From positions 26,725 to 90,724 of IMG/VR virus record IMGVR_UViG_3300034418_007766: 64,000 nt of DNA; one strand, written 5' to 3'. This document shows positions 26,699 to 50,392 of the stretch, in pieces (the stretch's first letter is position 1; each line of letters starts with the position of its first letter). Below the pieces are notes generated by a model, which was not told the origin of the DNA, ran no database searches, and saw only the letters and a list, made by a program, of their open reading frames with translations. The stretch comes from a virus. A program made the position numbers and the translations under genes.

Positions 26699-26998
26699 TT
26701 ATAATGCTGCTATTCGTGCTTGGAAGTCTGCAAAATCTGTTGCTGCTGCTACTTCTGTTTTGAGTGTTGCTAAACTTACATAACCCGGAATAACACCATT
26801 TACAGCATCTACTAATAATGTACTATCATCAGCAAACACACTGCCTTTGATATCTGTTACAACATTACCATCAGCTAATGCTGCAATATCAGTATATACT
26901 TCTGTAAAGTTTTCATTGACTTTGGTAAAGGCTACACGTAGTGGATCTCCGTCGCCGCTGTTATCATTTGTGCCTGTGTTTATAATTAACTGTGTCAT
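26699..26998 (-). CDS. small tail/baseplate protein
   Basis: GDGDPLRVAFTKVNENF N-terminal motif and DIKGSVFADDST. Confidence 0.65.
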   Translation of the reverse strand: MTQLIINTGTNDNSGDGDPLRVAFTKVNENFTEVYTDIAALADGNVVTDIKGSVFADDSTLLVDAVNGVIPGYVSLATLKTEVAAATDFADFQARIAAL

Positions 26999-41926: not shown

Positions 41927-42111
41927 GATGCCAATGCCTCTTTGTAACCAGCATATACAAGGCTTTGAAAATAGCTCTCAGCTTTTTTGCGATCGTGAAA
42001 CTCTTTGCTGGTTTCAAAATCCAACATATCATATTCGTTGAATACAGCACCGTTTTTGGTTACATCTACTGTGATTGATCGTTTGTTACGTTGTAAGACA
42101 CATGTTTTCAT
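41923..42111 (-). CDS. hypothetical protein
   Basis: Coupled ORF. Confidence 0.55.
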   Translation of the reverse strand: MKTCVLQRNKRSITVDVTKNGAVFNEYDMLDFETSKEFHDRKKAESYFQSLVYAGYKEALAS

Positions 42112-43291
42112 TTGCGTTCACCAGTTTTGCTATTACAGGGTTGACATCCATAAGAGACACTTTGCTCTTACTGTCTAGCTTACTTATAACATACTTACGC
42201 AAGTTGTCAAGTTCTTTTCTTGAATTTATTCGCCAATTTTTGTTTTTTATTTCTTCTAGATGCTGTGTTTCCATGAACTTTCGCACTTCGTTATCTATTA
42301 CACCAGTGCCTAAATGTTCTAACAAATAGTTTTTTTGCTGCCTATCAAGTAAACTGATATTGTAAAAAATTGGGTCATGCAAAAAATTACACACAAGATT
42401 ATCTATATCAAATCCTATGCTATCACACCATTTCTCCATGTTTGTGCCGCTCAAACTGTTAAGCAATCCTACTGTGTATGTAATTTTAACATCAACATCT
42501 TGTTGCATAGCGTGTTTGAAATTTTCTTCAAGTCTTCTCCATTTTGCAGGAGGACGTTGATATTCATAATTAGCACCTACATCATCTATACTGTAATGTA
42601 ATTGTATACTTTGAAACTTTGAAAATATTTCAAGCAGCCTATTTGTAAGTTTGAATGAGCCATTGGTGTGGAATTTGATCCAAATATTTTTTGCTCTATC
42701 GGTTTCAATCAAATGATCTAATAGCGTGTAGTGATCGTTGATCAAAAAAGGTTCGCCACCGCTGAGATACAACACTTCTAAGTTTTCACTGATGTTTACA
42801 ATGCTATCCCAGTTTTGTTTTTGTGTTACCCAATCTTTACCGTAGCTAGGATTAATAACTTGTCCAAAAATTTCTAGTTCAGTTTGTTCCCATTTTTTTG
42901 TAAATTCGCTATTGCAAATTTTACATTGTAGATTACAGTGATTGCCCAATTTAACATCAAACAACACAGGGTTAGGTGCATCTAATGAGTTCATAAGGTG
43001 CAAGTGTTTGCCATGCACCTGCATTTCTCTTTGACGTCTACTCAATATTCCTTGTGATTCTTGCGTAAAGCATTTACTACAACCATCGGGTTCTTCGCCG
43101 TTGATATACTGTTGTCTTAACCTAGTATATTCATGATTGTTCCATACACTTTCTAGTGTGGTGTTTGCATCATTTAAGTCAGTTTTACTGCCATCTTCAT
43201 TTACAAAGTCATACTTGTATTCTGCACAAGGTCTAACAAACCCTGTTGCACACACTTCAATTTGTGTCCATGGCACAATACATTTACGCAT
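42086..43291 (-). CDS. radical SAM protein with N-terminal SPASM/twitch-like domain
   Basis: CIVPW...RPC...CSKC, then CNLQCKIC and SGGEPF. Confidence 0.85.
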   Translation of the reverse strand: MRKCIVPWTQIEVCATGFVRPCAEYKYDFVNEDGSKTDLNDANTTLESVWNNHEYTRLRQQYINGEEPDGCSKCFTQESQGILSRRQREMQVHGKHLHLMNSLDAPNPVLFDVKLGNHCNLQCKICNSEFTKKWEQTELEIFGQVINPSYGKDWVTQKQNWDSIVNISENLEVLYLSGGEPFLINDHYTLLDHLIETDRAKNIWIKFHTNGSFKLTNRLLEIFSKFQSIQLHYSIDDVGANYEYQRPPAKWRRLEENFKHAMQQDVDVKITYTVGLLNSLSGTNMEKWCDSIGFDIDNLVCNFLHDPIFYNISLLDRQQKNYLLEHLGTGVIDNEVRKFMETQHLEEIKNKNWRINSRKELDNLRKYVISKLDSKSKVSLMDVNPVIAKLVNANENMCLTT

Positions 43292-44771
43292 CTAATTTTT
43301 CCATCAATTGTTTATAATAAAACTTATCATAAAAATATTTAAACTTTTCGTTTTCTGATCCTTCTATGTCATTGCAATATGCATCATATAAACTCCAATA
43401 TTTCCAAACTTTAGGAGGAAATGTGTTGTGTTCAGCAACTGCTTGATTAGCAAAGTCTGCTATCTTTTGTGCTTGTAAAGAGTTTGAGATATCTCCGCTG
43501 TCATTTCTTGTCCATGTCAAGCCATCTATTGTATAGTTGTAATGGTTAGGATTGCGATCTATAGCACTGTCAAACATAAAATTATTTAGGTCGCCAAGAT
43601 CCTTTAATAACAAAGCATTGAAACTCAGCGCATCTATATAATTGTTACCTTCTTTGCTATACCAATTTACCATGTCAAGCACATCTTGCTCGTTATCATA
43701 AGGCAATCCTACAACATAGCCTGCATTTACATACACATCGTCTGCCCAAACCTGTTTACAATTTTTCATGCCTTGTATTTTAATATCTTTATTATCACCT
43801 TTGCCTACAATTTTGCTGGTTTTGTTGTTCCAAGTTTCTAGTCCATAATAAATTCTACGCAATCCAATATCATACATTAACTGTGCTTGATGCTTTTGTT
43901 TTGCAACCAAGTCCATGCGAACATATGCTTCAAAATAAGGTTGGTAATCTAAACTTTGTATTACCTCATTTACAAGTTCTAATTTTGGCGTGTAATCATT
44001 GAAAGTGTCGTCAACGATATAATACTGATATACACCCCATTTTTTATAATTTTCACTGAGCTCTTTGAACAACACATCTTGATATTTGGTGTAGTCTTTG
44101 GTATTTTGTCCGATGTGTGGATAACTACAAAATGCGCAATTAAATATGCATCCTCTGCTAATTTCTATTGTAAGTATTTCTTCACTGTTTATGCAATCAG
44201 TATCTTCATAAGAAACCGATGTATTAGCAAAATTATGATTTGGACCATGCCCACGTGGATCGTAGTTATAGATGTGTTCACGCTTGCCTTGTAGATAGTC
44301 TACAAATTGATTTTCACAAAAGCCAACAAAAATTCTATCCCATTCTGTATCTCGAACGTATTCAAAAACTTTACTGCCTCCAACAATGCATTCTGTGCGA
44401 TTATTAACTTGCTTGACATAATCTATGTAGCGGTTTTGATTGCCCAAGAAAATTTGCCAACTCATGCCTTCGTTGAAGTTAACTGTTCTTGTGTCTCTGC
44501 TTTCAGGTCCAAGTAAATATTGATTTCCGCCAAATGTTCTCCATGGAAACCATGTAATACTCCAGCCAACACAAACAGTATTTGATCCAACTGTTTTGTC
44601 TATTATTGTTTGGTATTGTTCCCAAGTAATACAACTTGAAAAGTCGATAACAATTGCACTGTGCCCTTGCGCTCTAGCTAGATTGGCAATTTTATAGGCA
44701 CCTAATCCTCTTTGCGGTGAAAGTTTATCTGCAATGTCAGTAAAAATTACAACATCATAGGTCATTTTCAA
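43284..44771 (-). CDS. B12-binding-like radical SAM protein
   Basis: EISRGCIFNCAFC, DDTFND and GLET motifs. Confidence 0.85.
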   Translation of the reverse strand: MKMTYDVVIFTDIADKLSPQRGLGAYKIANLARAQGHSAIVIDFSSCITWEQYQTIIDKTVGSNTVCVGWSITWFPWRTFGGNQYLLGPESRDTRTVNFNEGMSWQIFLGNQNRYIDYVKQVNNRTECIVGGSKVFEYVRDTEWDRIFVGFCENQFVDYLQGKREHIYNYDPRGHGPNHNFANTSVSYEDTDCINSEEILTIEISRGCIFNCAFCSYPHIGQNTKDYTKYQDVLFKELSENYKKWGVYQYYIVDDTFNDYTPKLELVNEVIQSLDYQPYFEAYVRMDLVAKQKHQAQLMYDIGLRRIYYGLETWNNKTSKIVGKGDNKDIKIQGMKNCKQVWADDVYVNAGYVVGLPYDNEQDVLDMVNWYSKEGNNYIDALSFNALLLKDLGDLNNFMFDSAIDRNPNHYNYTIDGLTWTRNDSGDISNSLQAQKIADFANQAVAEHNTFPPKVWKYWSLYDAYCNDIEGSENEKFKYFYDKFYYKQLMEKLDA

Positions 44772-45465
44772 TCCAAGGCACTAATACTTCAGCAGCAAAT
44801 CGTTTGTGTTGGTAATTGCCGGGATGTGGATCATCATTTTTTGGGAAATCATTTGGATAATTTTTTATACACCAATTGTGCATACTTTTGACTGGAAGAA
44901 ATCTATTCCAATCAATCAGATCTTTTAAATGATCAACAAACACTGCACTATCTTTTGGGTCTTTTAGCACTTCGTCTGTATAGGTTGAAAAAAAGTATTT
45001 TATTCTATAACTCTTTAAAAATAATTGCAATCTCAACATATGCTCATAGGTTTCTATTTGATCTTGGATTGAATTATTATAAGTTCTGTAATATCCCATT
45101 GCAAATTTGTTATCAAAAAAAGGATTTATCAAAACCCATCCGTGCTTTGATCCTTCAGGCCATATATGAGGACTGGTATCACTGATGTAAGGTTTGCATA
45201 ACTTTAATGTATCATCTGATTCAACATAGAAAGCCTTTCTGCCAGGGCCGCTCCACATAACGCCTACATACATTTCTTCAGGAGACATTCCTGCTTGTAA
45301 ACAATCATATACCTGTCTTATTACTTTGCGAGAAATCAAATCATTGCCACTGCTTCCTACACCTGTTTGATCATGAGTGACTTTTAGCTGATTTTCTAAA
45401 TGCACGGGCCAGCAAAACATATCAGCACTGAAGCTGCAACCTCCAGTTATCAAATGTGTTATCAT
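44755..45465 (-). CDS. SGNH hydrolase/acyltransferase-like protein
   Basis: GCSFS, GSGN and DPHP motifs. Confidence 0.6.
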   Translation of the reverse strand: MITHLITGGCSFSADMFCWPVHLENQLKVTHDQTGVGSSGNDLISRKVIRQVYDCLQAGMSPEEMYVGVMWSGPGRKAFYVESDDTLKLCKPYISDTSPHIWPEGSKHGWVLINPFFDNKFAMGYYRTYNNSIQDQIETYEHMLRLQLFLKSYRIKYFFSTYTDEVLKDPKDSAVFVDHLKDLIDWNRFLPVKSMHNWCIKNYPNDFPKNDDPHPGNYQHKRFAAEVLVPWIENDL

Positions 45466-45617
45466 TTTTTTACTTCGCAACCTCCTTTGTGTCCACAATG
45501 CGGGCAGTGAAAAGTATATCTATCAATACACATTTTTTCCATTGTTGCATAAGTGAACCAGTTCTTGCATTTACCACAAGTGAGATGCCAAATAGTTTCT
45601 TTAACAGCTTTGAACAT
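45462..45617 (-). CDS. 51-aa zinc-ribbon protein
   Basis: CGKC / CPHCG; TATAAATA 4 nt before the ATG. Confidence 0.7.
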   Translation of the reverse strand: MFKAVKETIWHLTCGKCKNWFTYATMEKMCIDRYTFHCPHCGHKGGCEVKK

Positions 45618-45637
45618 AAAATATTTATAAAGAGAAA

Positions 45638-45660
45638 TGGTAGTCCTAACAGGATTCGAA
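45638..45660 (-). pseudogene. tRNA 3'-end remnant
   Basis: TTCGAATCCTGTTAGGACTACCA: T-loop, acceptor strand and CCA, with no 5' half. Confidence 0.6.
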
Positions 45661-45690
45661 AAAGACAATTAATGCAAAACACAGTAAAGT

Positions 45691-45783
45691 TGGTAGACGC
45701 CCTGGGGATCGAACCCAGCCGTGAACAGTAATCTGCTGCCTAAGGGGATATAAGTCCCTCCCGCACAACCAGTGCTGACGTCC
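45691..45783 (-). tRNA. atypical tRNA with UAU anticodon (Ile-like) and long variable arm
   Basis: 7-bp acceptor, GCAC/GTGC D-stem, CT-TAT-AT loop, AGCAG/CTGTT variable arm, CTGGG-TTCGATC-CCCAG T-arm, ACCA. Confidence 0.7.
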
Positions 45784-45805
45784 ATTTATGGTGCTCCAAC
45801 GGTTT

Positions 45806-45895
45806 TGGCGGAAAGGGTGGGATTCGAACCCACGGTAGAGTCTCCCCTACTTCGGTTTTCAAGACCGACGCCTTAAGCCTCTCGGCCACCTTTCC
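45806..45895 (-). tRNA. tRNA-Ser(UGA)
   Basis: TCGGT-CT-TGA-AA-ACCGA, long variable arm, GCCA end. Confidence 0.95.
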
Positions 45896-45899
45896 TTGT

Positions 45900-45973
45900 T
45901 GGAGCGGGTAAGGAGAATCGAACTCCTATCATCTGCTTGGAAGGCAGAGGTCTTACCATTACACAATACCCGC
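45900..45973 (-). tRNA. tRNA-Gly(UCC)
   Basis: TCTGC-CT-TCC-AA-GCAGA, TCCA end. Confidence 0.95.
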
Positions 45974-45977
45974 GATA

Positions 45978-46054
45978 TGGTCCGGGTGGAAGGATTTGAA
46001 CCTCCGACATCTACGCCCCAAACGTAGCGGTCTACCAGACTGACCTACACCCGG
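45978..46054 (-). tRNA. tRNA-Pro(UGG)
   Basis: CTACG-TT-TGG-GG-CGTAG, ACCA end. Confidence 0.95.
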
Positions 46055-46058
46055 AATA

Positions 46059-46133
46059 TGGTGGGCCCGGAGGAAGTCGAATCCCCAATCGATGCGTTAT
46101 GAGCGCACTGCTTTACCATTAAGCTACAAGCCC
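46059..46133 (-). tRNA. tRNA with CAU anticodon, probably Ile2 (lysidine type); elongator Met not excluded
   Basis: GTGCG-CT-CAT-AA-CGCAT; GGGC acceptor; paired 1:72, so not an initiator. Confidence 0.85.
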
Positions 46134-46145
46134 TATGTTACATAT

Positions 46146-46230
46146 TGGCACAGGTGGCGAGATTCGAACTCGCTCAGCTAACGCACTGGTTTTGGAGACC
46201 AGCCTACCTCTCCGACTGTAGCGCACCTGC
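46146..46230 (-). tRNA. tRNA-Trp(CCA) with enlarged variable region
   Basis: CTGGT-CT-CCA-AA-ACCAG, 12-nt variable region, G73-CCA. Confidence 0.85.
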
Positions 46231-46246
46231 ATAAAACTTTTTTTAA

Positions 46247-46322
46247 AACTACACTATCTTTAGCCCTTTCAAAGCCTCTGTCTCTGCAACGACACCTTAT
46301 TGCAGTAAGGTGTAGTGTAGTC
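46247..46322 (-). ncRNA. structured element with pseudoknot potential between the attenuator and tRNA-Trp
   Basis: GACTACACTA/TAGTGTAGTT outer stem; CACCTTA/TAAGGTG hairpin whose loop CTGCAA is complementary to downstream TTGCAG. Confidence 0.55.
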
Positions 46323-46324
46323 AT

Positions 46325-46359
46325 AAAAAAAGCCCCTAACATTATTAGTGCTAGGGGCT
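46325..46359 (-). terminator. intrinsic terminator of the putative attenuator
   Basis: AGCCCCTAGCA-7nt-TGTTAGGGGCT followed by TTTTTT. Confidence 0.88.
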
Positions 46360-46387
46360 GTTGAAATAACTTTTTTATAAAGTCACG

Positions 46388-46450
46388 TCAAGACATACCC
46401 CACTTTCGTGATGGCCAATATATTATACCTATTGTGTTAGTCTTGATCAT
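46388..46450 (-). CDS. 20-aa leader peptide MIKTNTIGIIYWPSRKWGMS
   Basis: GAAGGA RBS; codons ATA x3, TGG x2, CCA, TCA; overlaps the antiterminator arm. Confidence 0.7.
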   Translation of the reverse strand: MIKTNTIGIIYWPSRKWGMS

Positions 46451-46470
46451 GTAAAAAATTCCTTCATTGT

Positions 46471-46476
46471 TATTTA
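46471..46476 (-). promoter_or_regulatory. late promoter TAAATA upstream of the leader peptide
   Basis: GATAAATA 20 nt before the leader ATG. Confidence 0.55.
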
Positions 46477-46477
46477 T

Positions 46478-46688
46478 CTGTGATAGGTTGGATTAAGGAT
46501 TACCAACAACCGCCTCAACAGATCCTGTCAATCAATTCAGCGGAGCCTAGCATCGGATAGTTACTTCCAAAATACGCATCTTCATGTCTCCATGCTCATG
46601 CGCTGCCACTACAGCTACTAGCCAAGTTACTGCCTCTGTAAAGCAGCGTTTCCTTGCACTATCTAACTCGGACCGTCGTCTTTGTTAT
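46478..46688 (-). ncRNA. unassigned ~200-nt multi-branched structured RNA
   Basis: No minus-strand ORF, GC-richer than flanks, about 8 nested helices found by hand, own sigma70 promoter. Confidence 0.65.
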
Positions 46689-46694
46689 GTTTAT

Positions 46695-46723
46695 AATATA
46701 GCAAAAGAATCACCAAAGGTCAA
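46695..46723 (-). promoter_or_regulatory. sigma70-type promoter
   Basis: TTGACC-17-TATATT. Confidence 0.7.
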
Positions 46724-46728
46724 CCTTT

Positions 46729-47373
46729 TTATTGCCAAGAAACAAAAAAATCTTCATCTTTTTTGTAAAATTTTTCAATATATTCTTCATAGGTAATAAT
46801 TCGCGGACCCCAGTCCTGTAATGTATATCCATTGCTTTTATACATTACATTTTGATAACAACTTTCTTGTTCGTCTGGATATATTCTAACAAGGCCGGCA
46901 TCAAATGCTTGCCATTTGTCTGTGACACTCATCCAGCTACGTTTCACATTTTCCCACCAAGGTTGTTTTTCAATTTGATATCCACGCTTGCGTCTTTGCA
47001 TACTAAAAAACAATAAATCGTATTCAAATCCTAATACTTGTTCTACCAATGGAATTACATGATTAGCTAGTTGATCATGATGATACGTAATTTTTCTTGG
47101 ACTACGCCATTCAGGAAACATATAAGTTCTGTTGAGTATTCTAGCAACGTGTGGAGATAATTCAAGCAACCCGCTAAAGTGCCAAAGTTTATCGTCTAAG
47201 TATGCAATCCAAAAAAGTTTATGATCCTCAACTACACAGCGTTCTTTTGTATAATTTTCTCGTAGCCAATTATCTTCTTCTAAGCACTTTTGTCTTACTT
47301 TTTCAAATTCAACATTGTCATGATCAAATACATGTAATCTTACTCTACCTGAAGATACAATTTCATTTATCAT
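46729..47373 (-). CDS. hypothetical protein, possible GNAT-like fold
   Basis: 214 aa coupled to the desaturase; ARILNRTYMFPEWR is only weakly GNAT-like. Confidence 0.55.
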   Translation of the reverse strand: MINEIVSSGRVRLHVFDHDNVEFEKVRQKCLEEDNWLRENYTKERCVVEDHKLFWIAYLDDKLWHFSGLLELSPHVARILNRTYMFPEWRSPRKITYHHDQLANHVIPLVEQVLGFEYDLLFFSMQRRKRGYQIEKQPWWENVKRSWMSVTDKWQAFDAGLVRIYPDEQESCYQNVMYKSNGYTLQDWGPRIITYEEYIEKFYKKDEDFFVSWQ

Positions 47374-48148
47374 AATAATTTACACCTTTGAGTGAATCAG
47401 GTTTTGCTAGTTTTTCAATCAACCATTTACCAAAGTCAGGTTGTCCGCGGTTCCATCCAAACGCATAACTCCAAGGTGCCGCATGGTGATTGTTGTGCCA
47501 GCCTTCTCCCCAAGAGTATAATCCCATAATAAATGTGTTCTTAGAATCATCGTTTGTGTCAGTATCTTTATGTCCAAACATATGGGCACCTACAGTAATC
47601 CAGGATATAGTATGTAAACAAAACATTGTGCTTACTAGGTATCCATACATAAACAAGTCAGGATTGATAGCAAACAATAACAATCCCCAGCCAACTAATA
47701 TATGAAAATAGTATTTGTTAAAAAATCTATGATACGGATCTTTTAGTAAATCAATGACTATCCTTGGACTTACATGATGATAAGGCACAAAATTATGCCA
47801 TAATTTAAACTTTTGCCACAAGGTAGAATTTCTAATGCAGTGCGGATCTTTATCAGTGTCTGAATACTTATGGTGTATTCTATGCGTAGCAGTCCATGGA
47901 ATAGTAGGACCAACTGTGTTAATTACAGATAAAAAATGTAATATAATTAATATAAAATTATTTTTTGGTTCCCAAGATTTATGAGAAAAACAACGATGTA
48001 ACCCCATACTGATTCCAACATGCACTACTATCCAAGAAAATAACCACGAGCCAAATAGGTATGCTGCATTAAAGTTAAAAATTAACACCAAGGGTCCGCC
48101 TACATAACAAGCCAATTGAAACATATTTGTTTTTTGATCAACTCTCAT
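47363..48148 (-). CDS. membrane fatty-acid (delta-9 type) desaturase
   Basis: His boxes HRCFSH, HRIHH and GEGWHNNHH. Confidence 0.9.
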   Translation of the reverse strand: MRVDQKTNMFQLACYVGGPLVLIFNFNAAYLFGSWLFSWIVVHVGISMGLHRCFSHKSWEPKNNFILIILHFLSVINTVGPTIPWTATHRIHHKYSDTDKDPHCIRNSTLWQKFKLWHNFVPYHHVSPRIVIDLLKDPYHRFFNKYYFHILVGWGLLLFAINPDLFMYGYLVSTMFCLHTISWITVGAHMFGHKDTDTNDDSKNTFIMGLYSWGEGWHNNHHAAPWSYAFGWNRGQPDFGKWLIEKLAKPDSLKGVNYYDK

Positions 48149-49647
48149 TGGTTGTGTTTGCTTTCTATTTTTTTAGTCACATATAAATCTAACGGATCAG
48201 GATCTGTGTCCGTATCTATTTTTTTGTCATCCCATATATTAACATTTAATTTTAATGCATCTCGTAGGTTTTCCACACTGTATAGTCTGTTCATAATATA
48301 AAAGTTTGGCTCTACTGTAAAGATGTTTTCAGGAGAAAACATTTTGCTACACCACATGCTTGCTTCATAAAAGTTGGTTTGATCGTTTTGCCAAAAGAAA
48401 TAGTGATCGTCAAGTCTATGATGTGCAAGTTTACCAAACTGTTCGTATTCATTTTTTAATGCGTCAATAGTTGATTGATCTGATATTTTGCTGTATCCAT
48501 ACTTGGCCGGATCGTCGCTGAATAAACTATTTGTGTTATCGTTGCTACTGTCGTTGGTTATATCCAAAGGCCACCAATGCCATGTTTCAGTGCGCCAGTT
48601 CTTCTTCATCCATTTTTGAGTTTTATGCCAACTTTTTTCATCTTCTCCTGGTAATCCAGCAATCAATCCAATACTACCTCGATATAAACCTAAATGATCT
48701 AAAAAATACTTTCGAATATTAATTAAACAACGTTTTATTTTACTAGGTGACATACCTTTGCCTATCGCTTTCGCAGCCACAGGATGGAAAGTTTCTACAC
48801 CATAAAAGTGTGCCCATATTCTAGCACGTTTCAATAATTCTTTTTGATATGGCCTAACCACTACTAGGTCAACTCTAACAAAAGCACTGAAGTTTGGTTT
48901 GAATGGCAAACTTTCAACAACGTCTGCTATCATACGCAATTTGTCATCATCATCGTTTACTGTGCTATCAGCAATGATATAATTTTTTACACCATATAAA
49001 TTGTAATTGTTTATTAACTCTTCTCTAACATTTTCAGGATCGCGAAACACACTTTTTTTAAATCCTAAAAAAGCATAACTGCAATATTTACATTTGAATC
49101 TACAGCCTCTACTGAGTTCAATGGTTAGTGCTTCAAACGGTTGTATATGGTCGCTGTGATTGTATGTAACTGTGAGATCTCTGATGCTGTGTGCAGGATA
49201 ATCTGTGTCTGCATTCACCAGCATTGTCATACCATTGTGTATCATAGTATGTTTTGGAGGTGGTCCGTTGTTGAACAGATAATCAATGATAGGGTCAGCT
49301 GCATGTTCAAAAAATCCTGTGCAAACTAAATCAAACCCTTCGTATTTTTGGAATGGTTGTTGTCCACCTGCGAAATATTTTCTACCAGGAAAAGTTTTTT
49401 TGAGCCATTGCACATATTCTCCAATAATGTCTTGAAGCATCCATGTATAACTAAATGCAAATGCAACAGTGTCTGGTGTAACAATTTTACTTACATACTC
49501 TTTGAGTTTTTGGATATCCCATTGCTCAACAAAGTCTATCACTTCTACTTCAAAACCCATATCACGCAGAATGTTTGCAGTCCTATAAGCACCACTTGAT
49601 CTACGTTGAAACTGACTTGCATTGAATAAAACTATGTGGCCGTGCAT
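48145..49647 (-). CDS. B12-binding-like radical SAM protein
   Basis: ELSRGCRFKCKYC, DSTVND and GVET motifs; paralogue of 43284-44771. Confidence 0.85.
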   Translation of the reverse strand: MHGHIVLFNASQFQRRSSGAYRTANILRDMGFEVEVIDFVEQWDIQKLKEYVSKIVTPDTVAFAFSYTWMLQDIIGEYVQWLKKTFPGRKYFAGGQQPFQKYEGFDLVCTGFFEHAADPIIDYLFNNGPPPKHTMIHNGMTMLVNADTDYPAHSIRDLTVTYNHSDHIQPFEALTIELSRGCRFKCKYCSYAFLGFKKSVFRDPENVREELINNYNLYGVKNYIIADSTVNDDDDKLRMIADVVESLPFKPNFSAFVRVDLVVVRPYQKELLKRARIWAHFYGVETFHPVAAKAIGKGMSPSKIKRCLINIRKYFLDHLGLYRGSIGLIAGLPGEDEKSWHKTQKWMKKNWRTETWHWWPLDITNDSSNDNTNSLFSDDPAKYGYSKISDQSTIDALKNEYEQFGKLAHHRLDDHYFFWQNDQTNFYEASMWCSKMFSPENIFTVEPNFYIMNRLYSVENLRDALKLNVNIWDDKKIDTDTDPDPLDLYVTKKIESKHNQ

Positions 49648-49707: not shown

Positions 49708-49782
49708 TGGTGGAGCCTAGGGGGGTCGAACCCCTGACTTCGGAATGCAAATCCGATGTTTTCCCAACTATACTAAGGCCCC
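49708..49782 (-). tRNA. tRNA-Ala(UGC)
   Basis: TCGGA-TT-TGC-AT-TCCGA, G3:U70, ACCA. Confidence 0.95.
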
Positions 49783-49786
49783 TTTA

Positions 49787-49861
49787 TGGTGCTGCTGGAG
49801 AGAATCGAACTCCCAATCTACTGATTACAAGTCAGTTGCCTTACCATTCGGCCACAGCAGC
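49787..49861 (-). tRNA. tRNA-Thr(UGU)
   Basis: ACTGA-CT-TGT-AA-TCAGT, ACCA. Confidence 0.95.
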
Positions 49862-49939
49862 GTTATTCCTTTGCTCTACCAACTGAGCTAGTCCAGCTTT
49901 GGCGGTCGGACTGGGAATCGAACCCAGTCAACCCTTTTA
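49862..49939 (-). ncRNA. circularly permuted tRNA-like module (T-arm, acceptor, D-arm; no anticodon arm)
   Basis: CTGGG-TTCGATT-CCCAG TCCGACC GCCA AA GCTGGAC TA GCTC-AGTTGGTA-GAGC. Confidence 0.6.
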
Positions 49940-50031
49940 TGGCGGTGACGCAGGGATTCGAACCCTGGGAACGCTTAATCACGTTCAACTCCTTAGCAGG
50001 GAGCCGCTTTCGACCACTCAGCCACATCACC
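49940..50031 (-). tRNA. tRNA-Ser(GCU)
   Basis: GCTCC-CT-GCT-AA-GGAGT, long variable arm, GCCA. Confidence 0.95.
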
Positions 50032-50392
50032 AAATCTCTTCTACTTCTCCTGGTTTAATATAATGAACGCCTTTGCCTTCCATTATAGTAACTGGCAAAT
50101 AAGTAACTTTCTTTTCTTCCTCTAAGTAAACAGCCCATCCATCAATAAGTGTTCTATCAATATCTTTGCTTACTTTGTTTACCATACTACGAGCGGCAAG
50201 TTCGTATGTGCCTTTGCTCGGAAGTAATGAACGATACTTTACTTGTAATCTTTTAATATTACCTTGTTTATCCATCGCAATCAAGTCCACAGGACTAAAA
50301 TCATCAAATGGTGTAAAGCAATGGTAACCTTTGTCATACAAGTCTGACATTACTTTTATTAAACCAACATTTCCTTTCTCGTTTACATTCAT
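50027..50392 (-). CDS. PD-(D/E)XK endonuclease, I-Ssp6803I-like free-standing homing endonuclease
   Basis: KG..G, PVDLIA and RLQVK motifs; adjacent to the tRNA array. Confidence 0.75.
   Translation of the reverse strand: MNVNEKGNVGLIKVMSDLYDKGYHCFTPFDDFSPVDLIAMDKQGNIKRLQVKYRSLLPSKGTYELAARSMVNKVSKDIDRTLIDGWAVYLEEEKKVTYLPVTIMEGKGVHYIKPGEVEEIW

Follow-up and report, generated by a model that had tools for sequence, protein, structure and literature searches.

Introduction

Can a ribosome gauge the supply of usable tRNA and, by doing so, set the synthesis of tRNA? This question is raised by a minus-strand locus in a 64,000-nucleotide (nt) stretch of viral DNA, hereafter called the window, which corresponds to positions 26,725 to 90,724 of the IMG/VR virus record IMGVR_UViG_3300034418_007766. 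At this locus, a short open reading frame (ORF) and an intrinsic terminator precede a series of tRNA genes. The 90.7-kb record, for which CheckV estimates a completeness of 26%, belongs to an uncultured giant phage. tRNA genes are usually regarded as promoter-controlled, and leader-peptide attenuation has so far been published only for amino-acid genes. The ribosome-mediated attenuators of amino-acid operons (trp, his, leu, thr, ilv and phe) are defined by Elf and Ehrenberg (2005; PMC1183508).

We favor, with somewhat better than even confidence, the interpretation that the element is a ribosome-mediated leader-peptide transcription attenuator gating a phage tRNA operon headed by tRNA-Trp. The evidence that carries this proposal comprises the anatomy of the element, its conservation and covariation among relatives, its link to tRNA(CCA), the transcription of the leader, and the presence of RNA that bridges the terminator. 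A preliminary description, made from the letters of the window, had proposed such an attenuator, and comparative tests on sequences support this interpretation.

Results and Discussion

Anatomy of the Element

The element occurs once in the record, whose eight tRNA genes all fall within the window. The parts on which the argument depends are these:

46459-46465, minus strand: ribosome-binding site GAAGGAA, 8 nt before the ATG.
46388-46450, minus strand: leader ORF of 20 sense codons plus TGA; the invariant TGG is codon 12, at 46417-46415.
46440-46451, minus strand: segment 1, the 5′ strand of helix P1, which includes the start codon (predicted from the fold and from AU/GC and CG/UA covariation).
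46388-46401, minus strand: segment 2, GGGGUAUGUCUUGA, which includes the stop codon (predicted from the folds).
46367-46385, minus strand: hairpin P4, UGACUUU / AAAGUUA, present in both predicted folds and forming the tip of the antiterminator.
46354-46364, minus strand: segment 3, composed of the linker UCAA-CA and GCCCC, the first bases of the terminator 5′ strand; predicted antiterminator partner of segment 2.
46325-46359, minus strand: intrinsic terminator with an 11-base-pair (bp) stem (46359-46331), a 7-nt loop and a run of seven T residues.

The leader ORF and ribosome-binding site noted in the preliminary description are confirmed in the window. From the ATG at 46450 to the TGA ending at 46388, the ORF reads MIKTNTIGIIYWPSRKWGMS, and its TGG is surrounded by three ATA codons, GGT, CCA and TCA. 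Folding recovers the three structures that had been predicted around it, namely helix 1:2, the inner hairpin and the 11-bp terminator; the terminator itself stands, and the T-run that follows it has seven residues rather than the six originally counted. Scans of the single sequence do not rise above shuffled expectation, with 3 promoter-like sites versus 3.5 and 1 terminator-like site versus 1.6, and it is the comparative data that place the element beyond chance.

Related Copies Conserve the Reading Frame and a Trp Codon

Relatives were collected from IMG/VR by way of a neighboring protein (4 loci), the exact terminator (18 loci), the conserved segment 2 pattern (81 stretches), and a pattern made of P4, the linker and GCCCC that leaves segment 2 free (109 stretches, 33 of them new and unique). 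One of the latter 33, L089, proved to be a false match and was dropped. The total is 122 anchored copies, of which 116 have a canonical ORF end (74 unique), four are frame-shifted and two are cut by contig ends. When the INPHARED phage collection was searched with the 1.1-kb region and with the 163-nt element, the queries returned tRNA matches only, or none; at blastn sensitivity, the element is absent from cultured phages. The segment 2 pattern likewise gave zero matches in a collection with one genome per prokaryote species.

None of the 74 unique canonical copies interrupts the ORF, which begins with ATG in 56 and GTG in 18 and ends with TGA in 56 and TAA in 18. Five length classes occur (18, 19, 20, 21 and 22 codons), such that insertions and deletions preserve the frame, and the other two frames are free of stop codons in just 29 and 23 of the 74. 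In 53 of the 74, an AGGA motif ends 7-10 nt ahead of the start. The encoded residues are much less constrained, in that 62 distinct peptides are found among the same 74 copies and the residues encoded by the hairpin loops are free to vary. Every copy also has an in-frame TGG, which falls at codon 10-13 and invariably 13, 16, 19 or 22 nt ahead of segment 2. In the frame-shifted copies (L100, L112, L120 and L127), inspection by eye places the shift after the TGG, with the frame remaining open to a stop 6 or 13 nt later. Judged from these comparisons, the frame is conserved and the peptide sequence is not, a pattern that fits a leader whose translation matters, and not a functional micropeptide or an accidental frame.

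Most relatives also encode Pro-Pro, or Cys-Pro-Pro/Ser, straight after the Trp codon. This Pro motif, which is slow to translate, may provide an extra intrinsic pause, or it may simply reflect the C-rich strand of hairpin P3. In L104, Arg-Arg takes the place of the Pro motif and the hairpin is retained.

A tRNA with Anticodon CCA Is the First Downstream Gene

The region downstream of the terminator contains the following:

46231-46324, minus strand: structured spacer of 94 nt between the terminator and the first tRNA (fold; recurs in relatives).
46146-46230, minus strand: tRNA with anticodon CCA, 85 nt (ARAGORN; Rfam, 41.8 bits).
45806-46133, minus strand: tRNAs with anticodons CAU, UGG (Pro), UCC (Gly) and UGA (Ser) (ARAGORN and Rfam).
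45691-45783, minus strand: tRNA-like gene with the loop CUUAUAU and a long variable arm (ARAGORN at lowered threshold only).

With default ARAGORN settings, a tRNA gene with anticodon CCA comes first downstream in 113 of the 116 copies. Among the remaining three, L055 yields CCA at a lowered threshold, and the contigs of L050 and L114 end too early. The tRNA-Trp gene is the sole tRNA in 12 of 62 non-truncated leader/array combinations. In these comparisons the Trp link is firm; for the long, 85-nt form of the CCA tRNA, Trp is the putative amino acid. The first tRNA measures 84-88 nt in 26 and 74-78 nt in 88 of the 114 copies that could be compared. The window tRNA(CCA) has a long variable arm, a discriminator G and an encoded CCA end, and it also weakly matches the tRNA-Sec model (34.6 bits).

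A separate promoter between the terminator and the tRNA genes, which the preliminary description had named as an argument against its own proposal, was not found. In 54 of 114 copies the tRNA begins 0-2 nt past the T-run, which leaves no room for such a promoter, and two RNA contigs described below bridge the terminator. A promoter scan of the window spacer (46231-46324) revealed no promoter-like site. This spacer is closed by an 8-bp stem, CUACACUA/UAGUGUAG, and folds with -23.8 kcal/mol (z -1.9). A gap of 70-95 nt is present at the same position in 40 of 114 related copies, and the spacer sequence itself is visible in several of them. It may represent a degenerate tRNA or a processing signal.

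Six tRNAs had originally been read in the window array. The five with anticodons CCA, CAU, UGG, UCC and UGA are recovered by ARAGORN and Rfam. The sixth, UAU, appears only at a lowered threshold, since the gene at 45783-45691 is missed by default ARAGORN and by Rfam and is mis-parsed when the ARAGORN threshold is lowered. Its anticodon is UAU if U33 and A37 are kept, and an A-C mismatch adjoins the loop. In 10 related loci, homologs 92-94 nt long are annotated as tRNA-Ile(UAU); an nhmmer profile of tRNA(UAU) genes found 10 loci, and the window copy was not among them.

Leader Codons Probably Match the tRNAs of the Array

If the leader senses specific tRNAs, its codons should track the anticodons of the genes downstream. 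Permutation tests were carried out on the 62 unique non-truncated leader/array combinations, after removal of the 8 of 70 that were truncated or empty. The four frame-shifted copies and two contigs that carry no leader (L062 and L065) were also dropped from these tests and from the comparison of close pairs given below. The anticodons CCA and CAU were kept outside the scoring, arrays were permuted within two leader classes, and the low-threshold call of "tta" in the window was scored as UAU from a reading of the loop.

For 98 of 108 array tRNAs, versus 80.6 expected, the variable part of the leader contains a cognate codon; none of 5000 permutations attains this total, a result that is inflated by the relatedness of the sequences. 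When Pro, Cys and Ser are omitted, 25 of 34 tRNAs are matched (15.5 expected; 0/5000). Specifically, tRNA(UAU) is matched in 9 of 9 cases versus 3.0 expected, and tRNA-Cys in 33 of 33 versus 28.1 expected (p ~4e-4). For rare tRNAs, 9 of 18 are matched versus 6.0 expected (p 0.07).

The clearest split concerns ATA codons. A tRNA(UAU) or tRNA(CAU) gene follows 12 of the 13 leaders with at least two ATA codons, versus 1 of the 49 others. All seven arrays with a CAU tRNA have ATA-containing leaders, six of them with at least two ATA codons. Because the CAU tRNAs track ATA codons in this manner, they are probably AUA-reading tRNA-Ile2 rather than tRNA-Met, an identity that the preliminary description had also thought probable.

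Individual loci provide further examples. L133 combines a His codon with tRNA-His; its sister L103, with a Tyr codon, lacks tRNA-His. The CGC-CGC that replaces Pro-Pro after the TGG of L104 is accompanied by tRNA-Arg(ACG). Similarly, L031 has GAA and CGT in its leader and both tRNA-Glu and tRNA-Arg(ACG) in its array, L027 has GGT before TGG together with tRNA-Gly, and L081 has TGT together with tRNA-Cys. We consider codon matching for multiple tRNAs to be probable from these comparisons.

Conservation of the leader, covariation of the helices and covariation of leader codons with array anticodons were the comparative expectations set out in the preliminary description. All three are borne out, the last most strongly for Trp, to which that description had given too little weight.

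Two Predicted Alternative RNA Folds Share Segment 2

The minimum-energy fold of 46476-46318 is the terminating fold, with -43.1 kcal/mol, a z of -4.69, and none of 200 shuffles as good. In order, it consists of P1 enclosing two hairpins (P2 and P3), then P4, then the terminator. P1, or helix 1:2, pairs C-AUG-A-UCAAGAC (46451-46440) with GUCUUGA-CGUG (46394-46384). In the terminating fold, segment 2 provides the 3′ strand of P3 and of P1, and in the predicted read-through fold it becomes the 5′ strand of the antiterminator.

The 2:3 antiterminator of the preliminary description forms when the nascent RNA is folded. In the window, the RNA that extends from the 3′ side of a Trp-stalled ribosome to the terminator loop yields this helix with -18.1 kcal/mol. 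In all 52 unique copies, the nascent RNA is predicted to adopt the antiterminator as its fold of lowest energy (-9.9 to -24.2 kcal/mol), where this RNA was modeled from 15 nt after the first TGG base to the terminator loop, a choice that favors the antiterminator. Nascent-RNA folding was adopted because masking a ribosome footprint left the minimum-energy fold unflipped, the terminator persisting in 51 of 52 and 52 of 52 copies. Energies computed for the terminator alone lack two outer pairs and were set aside. Shuffling only the linker, which is otherwise unpaired, weakens the antiterminator (mean z -1.63), and in 46% of elements at most 5% of such shuffles are as stable.

Covariation of both folds was computed on a 52-sequence alignment. 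For the terminating fold, pairing is found in 88.2% of cells, with changes on both sides in 11 pairs (71 cells); none of 500 shuffles is as good, and the values for slid controls are 35-47%. Covariation is seen in P1, in P2 and in the lower stem of the terminator (CG 30, UA 17 in this stem). The upper part of the terminator, GCCCC/GGGGC, hardly varies, a split that would be expected if GCCCC also pairs with segment 2. The antiterminator is 87.9% paired. In the extended set of copies, position 9 of segment 2 is C or U; with its P1 partner it forms CG in 55, UA in 10, UG in 5 and AU in 1, and with its antiterminator partner CG in 45 and UA in 11. Such a three-way change is a prediction of alternative pairing, and it may reflect it here, subject to the reservation that the change could represent one or few events.

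The Leader Is Transcribed, and RNA Bridges the Terminator

Upstream of the leader, the window contains two further features:

46695-46723, minus strand: sigma-70-like promoter TTGACC-17-TATATT with TG before the -10 hexamer (10/12 matches; RNA contig starts).
46477-46682, minus strand: manA-like structured RNA (RF01745), 206 nt, fused 5′ of the leader (Rfam alignment; RNA depth).

The promoter at 46723-46695 is the only promoter-like site upstream on the minus strand. The TAAATA that had been proposed as a promoter does not hold up, since no sigma-70-like site is present there and RNA contigs start at 46670-46672. Among the unique copies, 66 of 73 have a dedicated promoter, TTGACN-N16-18-TAnnnT, whose end lies 24-37 nt ahead of the start codon. 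In the window, the L002 group and L105, a manA-like RNA occupies the position that this dedicated promoter has in their relatives.

Evidence for transcription comes from four freshwater metatranscriptome runs, belonging to four studies, whose Logan contigs were aligned to 45700-46800. Every run contains a high-depth contig with its upstream end at 46670-46672, and depth is 0 at 46699-46800. Because depth is 0 upstream of the contig starts, the RNA appears to have begun at the promoter at 46723-46695 and not to derive from contaminating DNA. Two contigs continue through the terminator, one at 46022-46672 (651 nt, depth 153, no differences) and the other at 46067-46672 (606 nt, depth 134), such that RNA in two runs bridges the terminator into tRNA-CCA, tRNA-CAU and tRNA-Pro. 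A third contig, at 46308-46670 (363 nt, depth 144), ends 16 nt past the T-run, and a fourth covers the manA part at 46512-46670, with a depth of 522 and adapter at its end. These contigs give a hint of terminated and read-through forms and no more, since contigs cannot show ends or levels, a restriction that counts against drawing more from them.

In the window, one transcript comprises the manA-like RNA and, as its 3′ part, the leader. The manA-like RNA scores 37 bits, below the gathering score of 55.2, and aligns to the full-length model (1-192 of 192) with expectation (E) values of 4e-8 to 6e-6, which vary with the stretch searched, 4e-8 being the value from a 461-nt search. The manA motif has been reported from marine metagenomes and T4-like cyanophages in putative 5′ untranslated regions, according to Weinberg et al. 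(2010; PMC2864571). Unlike these known examples, the window copy precedes a leader ORF and tRNA genes, not a protein gene. manA-like DNA is also found upstream of the element in the L002 group, L105, L133, L087, L048 and L096, which are unrelated contigs; in some contigs it is fused directly to the element, and in others the attenuator's own promoter separates the two. The manA-like RNA is a neighbor of the attenuator and not part of the family-wide element.

A Proposed Model for Control by Ribosome Stalling

The preferred interpretation would operate as follows. In the window, transcription would start at the promoter at 46723-46695 and would produce the manA-like RNA and then the leader. By default, the transcript would adopt P1 (enclosing P2 and P3), P4 and the terminator, and transcription would end at the T-run. 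When translation is fast, the ribosome would reach the stop codon inside segment 2 and cover this segment, and the terminator would form. When decoding is slow at the invariant UGG, or at neighboring AUA, Cys, Pro or Ser codons, the ribosome would halt 13-19 nt before segment 2, which, freed and deprived of its partners, would pair with the linker and the GCCCC of the terminator 5′ strand. The terminator would then be blocked and RNA polymerase would read into the tRNA genes. The net effect would be to make tRNA-Trp and its array mates when usable tRNA is short, and to stop making them once supply is restored. We infer the translation of the ORF, the dependence of read-through on stalling and the cause of the shortage; the signal could be the depletion or cleavage of host tRNA, or simple feedback on the phage's own tRNA supply.

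A more elaborate version, which we regard as possible though doubtful, is that the leader functions as a multi-codon gauge, with lineages rewriting the codons around the fixed UGG to match their own arrays and with the manA-like RNA serving as a second, ligand-dependent input. The rewritten codons would include AUA-AUA, Cys, Gly, Tyr, His, Arg, Glu and Gln, such that a single short ORF would reflect how available precisely those tRNAs are that the operon provides. The operon would be on when codon-usage mismatch, host shut-off or anticodon nucleases cause the host pool of any array tRNA to fail.

Evidence Weighing against Attenuation, and Alternative Explanations

A number of observations speak against the attenuator proposal and its extension to many codons. 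Classical trp leaders carry two Trp codons, and the leader described here has a single regulatory Trp codon. Segment 1 corresponds to codons 1-4 and lies outside a ribosome stalled at codon 12 of the window, such that the masking of segment 1 by the Trp-stalled ribosome, by which attenuators are recognized, is not seen here. Indeed, a 30-nt footprint mask at the Trp codon keeps P1 and the terminator in the minimum-energy fold of 51 of 52 copies. Read-through would then need either a P1 that a stalled ribosome keeps from closing or the loading of another ribosome at the start site once this is free; the distance from the start to the Trp codon, 10-13 codons, is approximately one ribosome footprint. 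On the first alignment, the antiterminator has no pairs changed on both sides, a covariation test that was void there because segment 2 had been the search pattern.

The codon matching is also imperfect. Among 20 disjoint close pairs with 34 array differences, 28 differences are accompanied by no codon change, 5 by the predicted change and 1 by the opposite change. Several array tRNAs are unmatched (Ala UGC in L040, Arg GCG in L015 and L019, Ser GCU in L025, and Arg ACG in L079). Three ATA codons are present in L088 without a UAU or CAU tRNA, GGA precedes TGG in L098 without tRNA-Gly, and standard wobble does not let tRNA-Gly(UCC) read GGT. Many leaders contain Cys, Pro and Gln codons with no corresponding tRNAs in the array. 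Some of the putative sensing codons are also within the P2 and P3 stems, where runs of CC and GG encode Pro and Gly; in L103, a change of TGT to TAC occurs together with a compensatory P2 change.

One alternative explanation is that the element is a translation-coupled gate without specificity, in which any slowing of ribosomes (for example, under general translation stress or when ribosome supply is low late in infection) or a leaky terminator lets transcription proceed, and the codons have no specific meaning. The close pairs, in which leaders mostly stay unchanged when arrays change (28/34), the array tRNAs without a cognate leader codon, and the bridging of the terminator in two of four runs without known stress all agree with this explanation, as does the nearest published case, the Anabaena trn array, which answers general translational stress (PMC8421152). 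A gate of this type is hard to reconcile with a TGG that is invariant and in frame across structural contexts and with a tRNA(CCA) that is always the first gene, and it has difficulty explaining the ATA split (12/13 versus 1/49) or the His, Arg and Glu cases. We consider it rather unlikely.

Distinctly less probable is that the region stays untranslated and serves the tRNA precursor as a structured 5′ leader or stable small RNA, with a role in processing, stability or some other RNA function, and that the open frame is a by-product. The T4 tRNA region, for comparison, encodes small stable RNAs. This explanation would account for the strong nucleotide conservation and helix covariation, the conservation of segment 2 even at third codon positions, the pairing of the start codon in P1, and the high RNA depth; furthermore, because the T-run abuts the mature tRNA 5′ end, RNase P would free the whole element. 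It would leave unexplained why frame 0 is open in 74 of 74 copies versus 29 and 23 for the others, why insertions and deletions preserve the frame across five length classes, and why AGGA precedes the start by 7-10 nt in 53 of 74 copies with only ATG or GTG at the start position. The codon-anticodon links, too, have no RNA-only explanation. Finally, the ORF has its own promoter, ribosome-binding site and terminator, as a small protein gene would, and leader peptides with functions in trans, such as peTrpL, are known. A functional peptide of 18-22 residues, with the tRNAs transcribed by leak-through, is nevertheless very improbable given 62 distinct peptides in 74 unique copies, residues that vary freely in the loop-encoded parts, the tolerance of frame-shifted C-termini in L100 and the L112 group, and conservation that is seen at the level of nucleotides, not of residues.

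Relation to Known Regulatory Systems

The candidate attenuator resembles the trpL class in several respects. It has a short ORF with regulatory codons, mutually exclusive antiterminator and terminator structures, a stop codon placed so that a finishing ribosome would block the antiterminator, and termination as the predicted default without translation. The thr and ilv leaders are multivalent, and the element is similar to such leaders in that several amino acids may be read. It differs from the trpL class in having one Trp codon rather than two, in having a segment 1 that is the start-codon region, and in being phage-borne. Most importantly, the genes downstream are tRNAs, not an amino-acid biosynthetic or synthetase operon, and therefore the sensed quantity, usable A-site tRNA, would be the product itself.

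In T-boxes, uncharged tRNA is bound directly and no ribosome takes part; the genes under their control are synthetase or amino-acid genes. The element would share with them the sensing of tRNA status and a terminator/antiterminator switch, but it differs in that it has a ribosome-binding site and a conserved frame between a start and a stop codon. Rfam searches gave no match to a Trp, His, Leu, Thr or Phe leader or to a T-box at E<=1 in 45500-47000 or at E<=0.1 in 46300-46760.

The trn operon of Anabaena sp. PCC 7120 is a silent tRNA array that is induced by translational stress and controlled by the repressor TrcR at direct repeats over its promoter, as set out in PMC8421152 and PMC10272220; PMC8421152 does not use the words attenuation, leader peptide or terminator. 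Like this operon, the phage array would be an accessory set of tRNAs kept off until translation is impaired, but the Anabaena control is a protein repressor and not an attenuator. The preliminary description knew of no attenuator-controlled phage tRNA operon, and our literature searches agree; no published account of a leader-peptide attenuator for tRNA genes was found, with subscription journals outside search coverage.

Genomic Surroundings

Four radical-SAM domain proteins flank the tRNA region on the minus strand (42086-45498 and 48145-49647), one with a SPASM domain and one with a weak match to a B12-binding domain, and a DUF6071 protein sits amid them. A second tRNA cluster (Ser GCU, Thr UGU and Ala UGC) is located at 49708-50031 on the minus strand; no leader element is present there, and an ORF for a PD-(D/E)XK endonuclease (50027-50392) adjoins it. 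Pfam and PHROGs scans of neighboring and large ORFs, together with tblastn searches, gave no close cultured relative, the best being a ClpA-like ATPase with 44% identity to jumbo phages.

Concluding Remarks

If the attenuator interpretation is true, this would be the first case found in which the ribosome itself gauges tRNA supply to set tRNA synthesis, and it would provide a demand-driven logic for phage tRNA arrays. It would bear on the question of why phages carry tRNAs, for which codon bias, host shut-off and escape from tRNA-cleaving defenses are all relevant. The element is small and self-contained, comprising a promoter, an ORF and a putative switch, and it is present in many uncultured aquatic phages. 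The matching of leader codons to arrays would also offer a way to read tRNA identity, as for the CAU tRNAs that probably decode AUA.

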